A stretch of 64,000 nt of DNA, taken from sequence record PQ249397; one strand, written 5' to 3'. How positions within the stretch are numbered: position 1 is the stretch's first letter; each line of letters opens with the position of its first letter. The notes beneath the pieces were generated by a model, which saw only the letters and a program-made list of their open reading frames with translations, searched no databases and was not told the DNA's origin. This stretch comes from Escherichia phage Pu-Krd-SF3. Of the stretch, positions 3,096 to 8,264 are shown in pieces. Position numbers and translations under genes: made by a program.

Positions 3096-3551
3096 ATGAA
3101 ATACATGACTGTTACTGATCTGAATAATGCAGGTGCTACTGTTATTGGTACAATCAAGGGCGGTGAATGGGTTTTTGGAACTCCGCATAAAGACATTTTG
3201 TCTAACCCTGGATTTTACTTTTTAGTGAGTAAATTTGGTGGTCCATTTGATAGTCCGTGTGTATCTGCGCGATTTTATGTAGGTAATCAGCGTTCTAAGC
3301 AAGGATTCAGCGCAGTTCTAAGTCATATTCGTCAGCGTCGGTCTCAGCTTGCGCGTACTATTGCAAATAACAATGTTCCATACACTGTATTTTATCTACC
3401 TGCTTCTAAGATGAAACCTCTGACGACAGGATTTGGAAAGGGTCAGTTAGCTTTAGCGTTTACTCGTAATCATCATTCTGAGTATCAAACACTTGAAGAA
3501 ATGAACCGTATGTTGGCTGATAACTTTAAATTTGTTTTGCAGGCATATTAA
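3096..3551 (+). CDS. ndd: nucleoid disruption protein Ndd
   Basis: 151-aa product from internal ATG after GAGGAAATTAAT; [17 protein letters not shown]-terminus and size match T4 Ndd as I recall it. Confidence 0.7.
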
Positions 3552-3631
3552 TGAGTAATTTCCATAACGAACACGTGATGCAGTTCTATCGTAACAATCT
3601 TAAAACTAAAGGCGTCTTCGGACGCCAGTGA
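3551..3631 (+). CDS. stp: Stp peptide (26 aa; in T4 it activates the host PrrC anticodon nuclease)
   Basis: TAATG overlap with ndd; encodes [26 protein letters not shown], matching the T4 Stp peptide as I recall it. Confidence 0.6.
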
Positions 3632-3638
3632 GGAAAAT

Positions 3639-3797
3639 ATGAATATTGCAAAATTATTAGGAGTTATTTCATTTATTTGTTGGATAGTAGCATGCGTTTT
3701 AACTATCTGTATTGATGCCAGCAGTGTGTTTTCGCAAGCTTTAGCTCAGGGTATGTGTGCATATTTAACATTTGTGTTGTTATCTACTAATGATTAA
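3639..3797 (+). CDS. ac: small membrane protein, 52 aa (positional counterpart of T4 ac)
   Basis: GGAAAAT-ATG; hydrophobic; position between stp and gene 52 corresponds to ac in T4; sequence identity not verified. Confidence 0.35.
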   Translation: MNIAKLLGVISFICWIVACVLTICIDASSVFSQALAQGMCAYLTFVLLSTND

Positions 3798-3930
3798 GAA
3801 AATCTTGGGCTACTCAGTAGCCCTTGCTGCTTTATTGGTAGCACTATATTATGGAGTAATGTTCGGATTAATTCAAGTCGTGCTTTTCATTTCTGATGTT
3901 ATTATGGCACTACATTCACTAGTATGGTAA
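3790..3930 (+). CDS. small membrane protein, 46 aa (52.1-like position)
   Basis: overlaps the preceding ORF end; hydrophobic; immediately upstream of gene 52. Confidence 0.35.
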   Translation: MIKKILGYSVALAALLVALYYGVMFGLIQVVLFISDVIMALHSLVW

Positions 3931-3934
3931 ATTT

Positions 3935-5263
3935 ATGCAACTGAATAATCGCGATTTAAAAAGTATCATTGATAATGAAGCATTGGCTTATGCTATGTAC
4001 ACGGTTGAAAACCGTGCTATCCCAAATATGATTGATGGATTTAAGCCAGTTCAACGATTTGTTATTGCTCGAGCTCTTGATTTGGCACGAGGAAATAAAG
4101 ATAAGTTTCACAAACTCGCTTCTATCGCAGGTGGTGTAGCGGACCTTGGATATCATCATGGTGAAAACTCTGCGCAAGACGCAGGTGCTTTGATGGCTAA
4201 CACTTGGAATAATAACTTTCCTCTATTAGATGGTCAAGGAAACTTTGGTTCTCGTACTGTCCAAAAGGCAGCAGCAAGTCGTTATATTTTTGCTCGTGTA
4301 AGTAAAAATTTCTATAACGTATATAAAGATACTGAATATGCTCCGGTACATCAAGATAAAGAACACATTCCGCCTGCTTTCTATTTGCCTATTATTCCTA
4401 CTGTTCTTCTTAATGGCGTTTCCGGTATTGCAACTGGTTATGCAACTTACATTCTTCCTCATAGTGTTTCTTCTGTTAAGAAAGCTGTACTGCAAGCTCT
4501 TCAAGGAAAGAAAGTAACTAAACCGAAGGTAGAATTCCCAGAATTTCGTGGTGAAGTCGTTGAAATTGATGGACAATATGAAATTCGTGGAACATATAAG
4601 TTTACTTCACGAACTCAAATGAATATCACTGAGATTCCGTATAAGTATGATCGTGAAACTTATGTGAGTAAAATCTTAGACCCGCTTGAAGATAAAGGCT
4701 TCATTACATGGGATGATGCTTGTGGTGAGCATGGTTTTGGCTTCAAAGTTAAATTCCGCAAAGAATATTCTTTGAGTGATAACGAAGAAGAACGCCATGC
4801 AAAAATTATGAAAGACTTTGGATTGATTGAGCGTCGTTCTCAGAATATTACAGTCATCAATGAGAAAGGAAAACTGCAAGTTTACAATAACGTAGTTGAT
4901 TTAATCAAAGACTTCGTTGAAGTTCGTAAAACTTATGTCCAAAAACGAATTGATAACAAAATCAAAGAAACTGAATCAGCATTTCGTTTAGCCTTTGCCA
5001 AGGCACATTTCATCAAGAAAGTAATTTCAGGTGAAATTGTTGTGCAAGGTAAAACTCGCAAAGAACTGACCGAAGAACTTTCTAAAATTGAGATGTATTC
5101 TTCTTATGTTGATAAACTAGTTGGAATGAATATTTTTCATATGACTTCCGACGAAGCAAAGAAACTTGCTGAAGAAGCTAAAGCTAAAAAAGAAGAAAAC
5201 GAATACTGGAAAACTACTGATGTAGTTACAGAATACACCAAAGATTTAGAGGAAATCAAATGA
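3935..5263 (+). CDS. 52: DNA topoisomerase II medium subunit gp52
   Basis: 442 aa; MQLNNRDLKSIIDNEALAYAMYTVENRAIPNMIDGFKPVQR is GyrA-like and matches T4 gp52. Confidence 0.9.
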   Translation: MQLNNRDLKSIIDNEALAYAMYTVENRAIPNMIDGFKPVQRFVIARALDLARGNKDKFHKLASIAGGVADLGYHHGENSAQDAGALMANTWNNNFPLLDGQGNFGSRTVQKAAASRYIFARVSKNFYNVYKDTEYAPVHQDKEHIPPAFYLPIIPTVLLNGVSGIATGYATYILPHSVSSVKKAVLQALQGKKVTKPKVEFPEFRGEVVEIDGQYEIRGTYKFTSRTQMNITEIPYKYDRETYVSKILDPLEDKGFITWDDACGEHGFGFKVKFRKEYSLSDNEEERHAKIMKDFGLIERRSQNITVINEKGKLQVYNNVVDLIKDFVEVRKTYVQKRIDNKIKETESAFRLAFAKAHFIKKVISGEIVVQGKTRKELTEELSKIEMYSSYVDKLVGMNIFHMTSDEAKKLAEEAKAKKEENEYWKTTDVVTEYTKDLEEIK

Positions 5264-5409
5264 GTCCATTCATAGGTATTACAAGCGCGGCATTAGTATC
5301 TGGTAGCATTTTACTGGCGGGTTTAGGTGTTGTTCCAGCCGTAGCAGGAGGTCTTCTTGCGTTCGGAATTCAACGTGTTATCATGACAGTTATCACAGTC
5401 ATGCAGTAA
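5260..5409 (+). CDS. small membrane protein, 49 aa
   Basis: ATGA overlap with the gene 52 stop; Gly/Ala-rich hydrophobic sequence; followed by a terminator. Confidence 0.4.
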   Translation: MSPFIGITSAALVSGSILLAGLGVVPAVAGGLLAFGIQRVIMTVITVMQ

Positions 5410-5414
5410 TTTTA

Positions 5415-6512: not shown

Positions 6513-6970
6513 AAACTTTTAAAGAACGTTTAGCTCTGTTAGATAAAGCTTTGTCACGTGAGACTCCAGAAAGTTTGGCTGCTAAATTAGCTTTTTACAG
6601 TGGTGAATACACAGAACAAAATGTTTTAGATGAAGTTCCTGAAATCTGTTGGCAGTCTGCATATTGGGACGAAAACCAAAAGTATCAACGACGAATTGTT
6701 TGCGCAGCCAACCGTTTTAGATTAAAAGATGGACGAACTCTTATTATTCCGGGTGCTCGTCATTATTCTAAAGATATGGCAGCAGTTTTAGATGTAGTTA
6801 AACCTCAATTAGTTACTCAGCAAGTTTGTGATGATGACCAAGGGTTTATTGACCAATATAGTAATTATTGGACACGTGAAGAAGCAATGATTATTGCAAC
6901 TTACGCTGGACAAGTACGCATTGAACGTGGTGGTAGTGAAAAAGAACTTTACTCTGAGGACCTTTACTAA
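6509..6970 (+). CDS. hypothetical protein, 153 aa
   Basis: ATGA overlap with the upstream ORF. Confidence 0.55.
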
Positions 6971-7266
6971 TGAATATTAAAAAGTTTCAAATTGATGGAA
7001 TTATGAATCAAATCCAGGCATTGGAATATGCCAATAAAATGATGTCAACTAAATGGGGAATTTATGCCAATGAACCTGCATTTCAGTTCTGTAATATGGA
7101 ATTCACTAAAAAGCTCGTAGGAAAAGATTATGTATGTCCATTTAGTTCCCCAATAAATGGAATGCTAAAGCCTGCTTTACGCGATCTTTATATTGCGATG
7201 AACGAAGAGATGATAAAAGAGCTAAAACGCCAACTGAAGGTGATTCAATTTGGCCAGGGAAATTAA
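6970..7266 (+). CDS. hypothetical protein, 98 aa
   Basis: TAATG overlap with the upstream ORF. Confidence 0.5.
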   Translation: MNIKKFQIDGIMNQIQALEYANKMMSTKWGIYANEPAFQFCNMEFTKKLVGKDYVCPFSSPINGMLKPALRDLYIAMNEEMIKELKRQLKVIQFGQGN

Positions 7267-7468
7267 TTCAAAATCCGATTATTTTAATTCTCTCAATGAT
7301 AAAGATAAAAATCTAATACGGCATTTTATCGTTGAGATGGGATATACTGATACAAGTGATTTAAGAGAACATATATTTGAATGTGGTGTAGCTAAAAAGT
7401 TTTCATTCACATGCAAATGTTTAAGAGAGGTAATTCAGCACTATGAACAATTTAGTCGCAAAACATAA
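7250..7468 (+). CDS. hypothetical protein, 72 aa
   Basis: ORF overlapping the upstream ORF by 17 nt; start uncertain. Confidence 0.4.
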   Translation: MAREINSKSDYFNSLNDKDKNLIRHFIVEMGYTDTSDLREHIFECGVAKKFSFTCKCLREVIQHYEQFSRKT

Positions 7469-7551
7469 TTTTAATAAAGCTTCTGTTCATAAAGATAAGA
7501 AGAAAGCGTTTAAAGAATCTAATCGCAAACAGAAACATAAGGGGAAGGTCT

Positions 7552-7830
7552 ATGATTATTGATTCTCAATCTGTGGTTCAATATACAATCAAAATTGACA
7601 TTCTAGAAAAGCTATATAAGTTTCTACCAAATTTATACCACTCAATTGTCGATGAATTAGTTGAAGAACTACATCTTGAGAATAATGATTTCTTGGTTGG
7701 AACTTATAAAGACCTCTCAAAAGCAGGATATTTTTACGTAATTCCAGCTCCAGGAAAAAGTATTGATGATGTATTAAAAACTATAATGATTTATGTCCAT
7801 GATTACGAAATTGAAGATTATTTCGAATGA
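7552..7830 (+). CDS. arn: anti-restriction nuclease Arn
   Basis: 92 aa, acidic; size and position immediately upstream of asiA as in T4; RBS AAGGGGAAGG. Confidence 0.7.
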   Translation: MIIDSQSVVQYTIKIDILEKLYKFLPNLYHSIVDELVEELHLENNDFLVGTYKDLSKAGYFYVIPAPGKSIDDVLKTIMIYVHDYEIEDYFE

Positions 7831-7979
7831 GTCATAATCTTGAAAAGGTAATCGAGCATAATGTAGCTCAGGAACGTGAGTCGTTCAAGGAATTCGTAGA
7901 AAAAATTTTTGAAGAAAATAACACAGACCAGTTTACAAATCAAGTGTCTGATGATATTATAATAAAGTCAACTAATTGA
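7827..7979 (+). CDS. hypothetical protein, 50 aa
   Basis: ATGA overlap with the arn stop; acidic small protein; below the ORF-track cutoff. Confidence 0.35.
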   Translation: MSHNLEKVIEHNVAQERESFKEFVEKIFEENNTDQFTNQVSDDIIIKSTN

Positions 7980-7991
7980 GTGGTATAGTTA

Positions 7992-8264
7992 ATGAATAAA
8001 AACATTGATACAGTTCGTGAAATTATTACTGTTGCGTCTATTTTGATTAAATTTTCCAGAGAAGATATTGTTGAGAATCGTGTTAATTTTATCGCATTTC
8101 TGAATGAGATTGGAGTAACGCATGAAGGTAGAAAGTTGAATCAGAATTCATTCCGTAAAATTGTTTCTGAATTAACTCAAGAAGATAAGAAAACCCTCAT
8201 CGACGAATTCAACGAGGGTTTTGAGGGTGTATATCGATATCTAGAGATGTATACAAACAAATAA
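7992..8264 (+). CDS. asiA: anti-sigma70 protein AsiA
   Basis: 90 aa; MNKNIDTVREIITVASILIKFSREDIVENRVNFIAFLNEIGVTHEGRKLNQNSFRKIV matches T4 AsiA. Confidence 0.9.
   Translation: MNKNIDTVREIITVASILIKFSREDIVENRVNFIAFLNEIGVTHEGRKLNQNSFRKIVSELTQEDKKTLIDEFNEGFEGVYRYLEMYTNK

Follow-up and report, generated by a model that had tools for sequence, protein, structure and literature searches.

Do the four open reading frames (ORFs) that lie between motA and arn in Escherichia phage Pu-Krd-SF3 encode new inhibitors of host defence? The locus occupies positions 3096–8264 of the window, the whole stretch of 64,000 nucleotides analysed here (record PQ249397). The original prediction described it as a compact host-takeover and counter-defence block, in which these ORFs were left unassigned and were proposed as prime candidates for such inhibitors, possibly DNA mimics like Arn. 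The region is very probably the canonical rIIB-proximal early-gene block of Tequatrovirus (T4/T2 type), with arn.4 to arn.1 as non-essential accessory genes that are host-directed and encode no DNA mimics.

Positions 3000–8300 displayed 100% nucleotide identity, at equal coordinates, to Escherichia phage Pu-Krd-SF4 (PQ759884.1), the window being the start of the record, and hundreds of T4/T2-type coliphages were 96–98% identical to them. The block has the genes of the T4 reference map in equal order and orientation, with every gene on the + strand, and protein identity to T4 was 94–100% throughout with the exception of Arn.3 (82%). Ndd compacts the host nucleoid, and MotA together with AsiA retargets sigma-70 RNA polymerase to middle promoters. 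Both partners of this middle-transcription switch were present by Pfam, with MotA carrying both its MotA_activ (N-terminal activation) and MotCF (C-terminal DNA-binding) domains. Pfam matches and T4 identities bore out ndd, stp, ac, 52, motA, arn and asiA as they had been named and placed, all on the + strand; 52.1, motA.1, asiA.1 and a 39-aa ORF had been left out of that list (Table 1). The host-takeover and counter-defence label agrees with T4 annotation and literature, as do the roles given for Arn (anti-restriction) and for Stp, which inhibits the type I enzyme EcoprrI and thereby activates PrrC where that nuclease is present (PMC1484252). The block, its named genes and the genome are already known or deposited, and the block adds little as a finding, being textbook T4.

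The four ORFs at 6183–7468 do exist and are not unassigned: they are orthologous to arn.4–arn.1 of T4 (97, 82, 95 and 97% identical to T4, in that order), with their position between motA and arn kept. A Shine-Dalgarno (SD) sequence precedes each of them and each matched a PHROG family (E 1e-39 to 1e-72). A tblastn search of 50,697 phage records detected arn.4 in 997, arn.3 in 1551, arn.2 in 937 and arn.1 in 807, down to 28–50% identity. The SD sites, the PHROG matches and this conservation at the protein level indicate real genes and no chance ORFs.

The suggestion that these ORFs might mimic DNA did not survive. Arn, an McrBC inhibitor and DNA mimic by T4 annotation and literature, is strongly acidic in this phage (17 Asp/Glu vs 7 Lys/Arg; net charge -10; pI 4.46). 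The products of arn.4 to arn.1 share with the mimics T4 Arn and T7 Ocr that they are small early phage proteins from a common run of genes, but Arn.4 (+4; pI 9.2), Arn.2 (+4; pI 9.15) and Arn.1 (+1; pI 7.7) are basic or neutral and have none of the high net negative charge and low pI of such mimics. Arn.3 is mildly acidic (-5 over 153 aa; pI 5.0) and has enzyme-like invariant residues. The structure models of Arn.3 and Arn.4 had no PDB match at E ≤ 0.001, and the 50 best-listed matches of each included no mimic of solved structure, such as Arn, Ocr, ArdA or Gam. The mimicry idea thus fails on charge for Arn.4, Arn.2 and Arn.1, and finds no support for Arn.3.

The four genes were also more widespread than arn itself. 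Arn was detected in 484 phage records, all at ≥90% identity, and MotA in 1143, the spread of arn.4 to arn.1 being 1.7 to 3.2 times that of arn. Four other genomes kept the run arn.4, arn.3, arn.2, arn.1, namely those of KPV15 (Jiaodavirus), Virsaitis27 (Winklervirus), ESCO10 (Dhakavirus) and F2 (Tequatrovirus); a small basic ORF came next in KPV15, Virsaitis27 and ESCO10. The gene directly upstream of arn.4 was motA in KPV15, Virsaitis27 and F2, and no motA was annotated within the fetched stretch of ESCO10. Other genes were annotated in the place of arn in all four genomes. Because the ORFs are more widespread and stand beside motA where arn is absent, arn seems to have joined an older, motA-linked cluster only recently, and this wider spread and linkage to motA weaken the guilt-by-association argument for counter-defence.

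The block falls into two parts. The first comprises ndd, stp, ac, 52.1, 52 and motA.1 and ends at a strong terminator-like hairpin. The second starts from a promoter-like site and runs through motA, arn.4, arn.3, arn.2, arn.1, the 39-aa ORF (DUF7230), arn and asiA.1, with a second promoter-like site before asiA. No + strand terminator was found between motA and asiA in a terminator scan. MotA-box/-10 matches numbered just two in the block, both within 52.1 and upstream of gene 52, and a MotA-box search upstream of arn.4 gave no match. From this consensus scan we infer that arn.4 to arn are read through from the motA promoter; their products would then be made before replication, on one mRNA with motA and arn. 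A preprint on phage T2 (Collins et al., bioRxiv 10.64898/2026.06.19.733364) also treats arn.4–arn.1 as one transcript with arn, but labels the cluster 'middle', which differs from the early assignment suggested here. Once made, Arn.4–Arn.1 would act on host targets as non-essential accessory proteins, with Arn.3 as the most concrete case.

Arn.3 consists of a variable N-terminal helical module (residues 1–44) and a conserved C-terminal domain of ~95 aa (~residues 59–153). Its assignment to PF26092 comes from the precomputed accession on its homologues, the family being missing from the local Pfam copy. Among 1.84 billion cluster representatives (50% identity clusters), 4348 proteins matched its profile at E ≤ 1e-3, of which 1621 reached E ≤ 1e-10. 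Most of these relatives are free-standing proteins of 95–130 aa, and the position of the domain is C-terminal in every case. The domain occurs in Straboviridae, Ackermannviridae, phiKZ-like, rV5-like and some T5-like phages. Across 143 representatives that are pairwise <50% identical, residues A66-A67, R84-H85, M90, Q111-G-F-x-D115, R123, A126, A130, Q135 and L147-x-S-E-x-L-Y153 were conserved at ≥90%, most of them at ≥95%. The N-terminal module (window 6509–6640), in contrast, is an allelic hot spot, with 48–73% identity where that of the core is 95%; in other lineages it is absent or replaced, and this phage carries another allele than T4. One relative of 203 aa (P0008) apparently has two tandem N-terminal modules, one resembling the type in the window and one the T4 type.

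An AlphaFold2 model of Arn.3 had a mean predicted local distance difference test (pLDDT) score of 86.6, and in the core, at about residues 41–130, the means of 10-residue blocks were ~90 or above. Foldseek searches of this model against BFVD returned family members and weak 'large polyvalent protein' matches (767–1354 aa; E 3.5e-3 to 3e-2). The Arn.3 core may resemble the polyvalent-protein domains described by Iyer et al. (2017, PMC5512222) in being compact, apparently enzymatic and a C-terminal module of longer phage proteins, but it has no sequence match to LPD or any other Pfam model in the local library, and the link consists of the weak Foldseek E values. An ADP-ribosyltransferase or Tpt1-like reading of the RH and SE motifs was dropped, since the domain is not large enough and neither fold appeared among the listed Foldseek matches. 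On our reading, Arn.3 would be either a small enzyme or a protein that binds a nucleotide or nucleic acid specifically, with its core aimed by the variable N-terminal module. More tentatively, and at lower odds than even, the C-terminal domain could be a structurally new small enzyme or ligand binder that serves many large virulent phages as an early weapon; it would act on a conserved target in the host and be directed there by N-terminal modules that differ between lineages. Of the four proteins Arn.3 is the best target for further work, as a very widespread and sharply conserved domain without structural or functional precedent.

Among the neighbours of distant Arn.3 homologues were topoisomerase and DexA genes (Ackermannviridae) and, in an Aeromonas phage, genes of MazG/Prs/NAMPT-like type. 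An Arn.3-domain gene stands directly upstream of a run of phosphoesterase, RNA ligase and ATPase genes in Justusliebigvirus (L007 2980–5229; L022 2492–5339). This RNA-repair-like run is recurrent within Justusliebigvirus and was not seen in the other lineages. A pattern scan of bacterial genomes, with restrictive patterns, found Arn.3 relatives on one contig only, from a metagenome-assembled genome.

Several observations weigh against host-directed accessory proteins made early from the motA promoter. The promoter assignment is uncertain because the T2 preprint says 'middle' and yet arn.4 is preceded by no MotA-box match. An enzymatic role for Arn.3 is drawn solely from the conservation pattern; Foldseek found no relative of its model in the PDB (best E 0.12, TM 0.2), the N-terminal parts of its longer relatives (the longest 325–434 aa) had neither a Pfam match nor a PHROG of function, and the gene neighbourhoods of its distant homologues share no consistent partner, so that no inference was drawn from them. 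Searches of Pfam, NCBIfam and PDB sequences with all four ORFs gave no relative of known function and nothing above noise, and HIDEN-SEQ, which screened T4 by transposon on clinical strains, makes no mention of arn.4–arn.1 in its main text. These last two points count equally against dedicated counter-defence. Literature searches on PF26092, PF26821, DUF7230 and the PHROG identifiers found no papers.

A dedicated counter-defence role, with one or more of arn.4–arn.1 encoding inhibitors that are expressed with Arn against other host immune systems, is possible, if on balance improbable. Such an inhibitor idea is plausible and had already been voiced in the T2 preprint, which gives the functions of Arn.1–Arn.4 as unknown and 'conceivably' counter-defence; it is hence not original here. 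The genes are co-linear with arn with no terminator between them, and are treated as one transcript with it in T2. They also look dispensable in the laboratory host: all guides shown against arn.1 to arn.4 and asiA.1 in a CRISPRi-ART screen of T4 were 'Not Fit', that is, without cost. Fast variation, as seen in the Arn.3 N-terminal module, would be expected of an arms-race targeting module, and the polyvalent proteins to which its model is weakly linked are thought to be early counter-defence effectors (PMC5512222). On the other hand, a distribution wider than that of arn and beside motA where arn is absent is more typical of a conserved core of the lineage than of a mobile accessory; within the T4 group, conservation of Arn.4, Arn.1 and the 39-aa ORF is ~97–100%; and the charge needed for DNA mimicry is lacking.

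A service to phage gene expression, in which Arn.4–Arn.1 and the 39-aa peptide would be accessory to the MotA/AsiA switch or to mRNA and translation control, appears doubtful. The linkage to motA upstream and asiA downstream is tight and conserved across Tevenvirinae genera, and the phyletic spread is near that of MotA (807–1196 records vs 1143). The basic Arn.4 and Arn.2 (pI ~9.2) and the 39-aa ORF (+9) are compatible with nucleic-acid binding, and the mRNA is itself under small RNA (sRNA) and RNase E control in T2. Against this, no similarity to DNA- or RNA-binding families was detected, a Pumilio-repeat-like motif in Arn.2 not being accepted (E 0.03–0.08, not significant). Relatives of Arn.3 also occur in phages that have no MotA/AsiA system (Ackermannviridae, phiKZ-like, rV5-like). 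The knock-downs in T4 carried no fitness cost, but the CRISPRi-ART screen is weakly informative on this role because the motA guides shown were equally without cost. That the ORFs are non-functional filler or annotation artefacts has a negligible probability: arn.1 is missing from the deposited annotation and the T4 reference has no ATG for arn.4, but protein-level conservation in hundreds of genomes already refutes this reading, the SD sites and the synonymous-only differences in the arn.1 extension speak against it, and Arn.2 protein was detected on expression in the T2 study.

Two of the four genes are longer than annotated in T4. The T4 annotation of arn.1 covers only the last 43 aa, from an ATG at 7337, while 802 phage records align over ≥80% of a 72-aa Arn.1 that opens at a TTG. 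Even where overall identity falls to 50%, the first 29 residues remain conserved, the start codon being ATG in phage F2 and GTG in KPV15, and 4/4 DNA differences between the window and T4 upstream of the ATG are synonymous in the 72-aa frame. From the long alignments, the N-terminal conservation and the synonymous-only differences we conclude that arn.1 encodes 72 aa from the TTG at 7250. Judged by sequence alone, the product looks like a small helical protein. Serratia phage Kamaji (Demerecviridae, T5-like) has a 94-aa Arn.1 homologue (L012 1414–1698; 32% identical) near a DNA ligase gene, and the Arn.1 fold therefore extends beyond T4-like phages.

The length of Arn.1 bears on the control of the arn mRNA, which the T2 preprint places under the sRNA ArcZ and RNase E. 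The T2 operon and the present one share five equal genes, an ArcZ site at +285 to +294 of arn.2 and a GCATT motif, the proposed RNase E site, 11 nt before the arn.1 ATG. The preprint takes the 70 nt between arn.2 and that ATG as intergenic, whereas here they encode the conserved Arn.1 N-terminus. With a 72-aa arn.1, the ArcZ site therefore covers codons 2–5 and GCATT lies inside the ORF, so that the 'intergenic' RNase E/ArcZ control element of the T2 reporter constructs is coding sequence. If ArcZ does pair on codons 2–5, translation of Arn.1 would be controlled as well as transcript stability. The complement to ArcZ occurs once in the window and also in 17/100 shuffles, and is alone not beyond chance.

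The start of arn.4 (6183–6185) is an intact ATG here and in 6/6 IMG/VR contigs with the matching 23-nt context, whereas the T4 reference has ATA (L003 (T4) 3955–3957, minus strand) and is annotated from an internal Met onward (68 aa). On this evidence T4 may be a natural arn.4 hypomorph, and with ATA in the place of the start codon, screens based on T4 test Arn.4 poorly. For tests of these genes, Pu-Krd-SF3 or another phage of the T2 type is better suited than the T4 reference, and the 72-aa Arn.1 and 109-aa Arn.4 are the frames to use; published guide RNAs and reporter constructs were built on truncated annotations. The Arn.4 family (PF26821) comprises only 56 clusters. An AlphaFold2 model of Arn.4 (pLDDT 81), confident in its core, placed a five-strand beta-meander between one helix at the N-terminus and several at the C-terminus, with no significant Foldseek match in the PDB (best E 0.17); weak matches to PH-like/FERM-F3, YkuJ and T7 Gp1.2 were rejected at a probability of 0.35 or less. 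Single-sequence and profile searches of Arn.2 and Arn.1 against the PDB also gave no significant match.

Table 1. Genes and sequence elements of the early block, by position in the window.
Feature	Position	Strand	Description
ndd	3096–3551	+	Nucleoid disruption protein, 151 aa; Pfam PF06591 (Phage_T4_Ndd), 296 bits, E 6.4e-89; 95.4% identical to T4 Ndd
stp	3551–3631	+	26 aa; 100% identical to T4 Stp; directly after ndd, start overlaps ndd stop
ac	3639–3797	+	Acridine resistance locus, encodes a small membrane protein; 96% identity to T4 Ac
52.1	3790–3930	+	Small predicted membrane protein, 46 aa; 97.8% identical to T4 gp52.1 over residues 7–52
MotA-box/-10 matches	3828–3852, 3881–3905	+	Inside 52.1
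52	3935–5263	+	Topoisomerase II medium subunit; 99.1% identical to T4 gp52
motA.1	5260–5409	+	Hydrophobic, 49 aa; 100% identical to T4 MotA.1
Intrinsic-terminator-like hairpin	5414–5435	+	9 bp (6 GC), then T run; after motA.1, would close the ndd-to-motA.1 unit
Sigma-70 promoter-like site	5466–5494	+	TTTACA-17-TACTAT with TG (extended -10), consensus scan; probable early promoter of motA and downstream genes
motA	5537–6172	+	Activator of middle transcription; Pfam PF09114 (E 4.5e-61) and PF09158 (E 6.5e-64); 95.7% identical to T4 MotA
arn.4	6183–6512	+	109 aa; 97% identical to the T4 frame; PHROG 1594; precomputed Pfam PF26821
arn.3	6509–6970	+	153 aa; precomputed Pfam PF26092
arn.2	6970–7266	+	98 aa; PHROG 1844
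arn.1	7250–7468	+	72 aa; TTG start 7250, SD AAGG 7237–7240; PHROG 4452 (72 aa), E 5e-39
ArcZ pairing site	7254–7263	+	CCAGGGAAAT; perfect 10-nt complement of E. coli ArcZ AUUUCCCUGG
GCATT motif	7321–7325	+	Before the internal arn.1 ATG; matches the proposed T2 RNase E site
39-aa ORF	7443–7562	+	Strongly basic, net charge +9; Pfam DUF7230, E 1.2e-11, above gathering score; overlaps arn.1 end and arn start
arn	7552–7830	+	DNA-mimic inhibitor of McrBC, 92 aa; Pfam PF22134 (DM_Arn), 177.6 bits vs cut-off 26, E 5.6e-53
asiA.1	7827–7979	+	Acidic, 50 aa; 94% identical to T4 AsiA.1; PHROG 3762
Sigma-70 promoter-like site	7932–7960	+	TTTACA-17-TATTAT with TG (extended -10), consensus scan; upstream of asiA
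asiA	7992–8264	+	Anti-sigma-70 factor, MotA co-activator; Pfam PF09010, E 4.5e-42; 98.9% identical to T4 AsiA

Arn is 95.7% identical to T4 Arn, and the differences lie at residues 13, 34, 49 and 70 (I13, D34, V49 and S70 in this phage). The Ser at residue 70 is of the T2 type. T4 Arn is reported to need Asn70 to bind and inhibit the defence system PUA-Cal-HAD, which T2 Arn (Ser70) does not do (PMC12871103, a 2026 preprint); Pu-Krd-SF3 is therefore predicted to be sensitive to PUA-Cal-HAD.

The 39-aa ORF was detected in 1196 phage records, being ≥99% identical in 440, and is 100% identical to a T4 ORF that is unannotated in T4 RefSeq. An ArfA-like ribosome binder was considered for it and rejected, with zero similarity. 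The PQ759884.1 record annotates this ORF but leaves stp, 52.1 and arn.1 unannotated. The ORF list opened 52.1 at a TTG at 3772, and the T4-equivalent 46 aa begin at codon 7. An Rfam scan of positions 2000–9000 gave sub-threshold chance matches only.

Outside the block, the neighbouring gp38 (261 aa; 8952–9737, minus strand) lies downstream of the holin gene and is a T2-type glycine-rich adhesin here, whereas that of T4 is a chaperone; gp37 (1260 aa) was found at 9768–13550, also on the minus strand. With a gp38 of the T2 type, the receptor-binding module of this phage is therefore T2-like and its early block T4-like.

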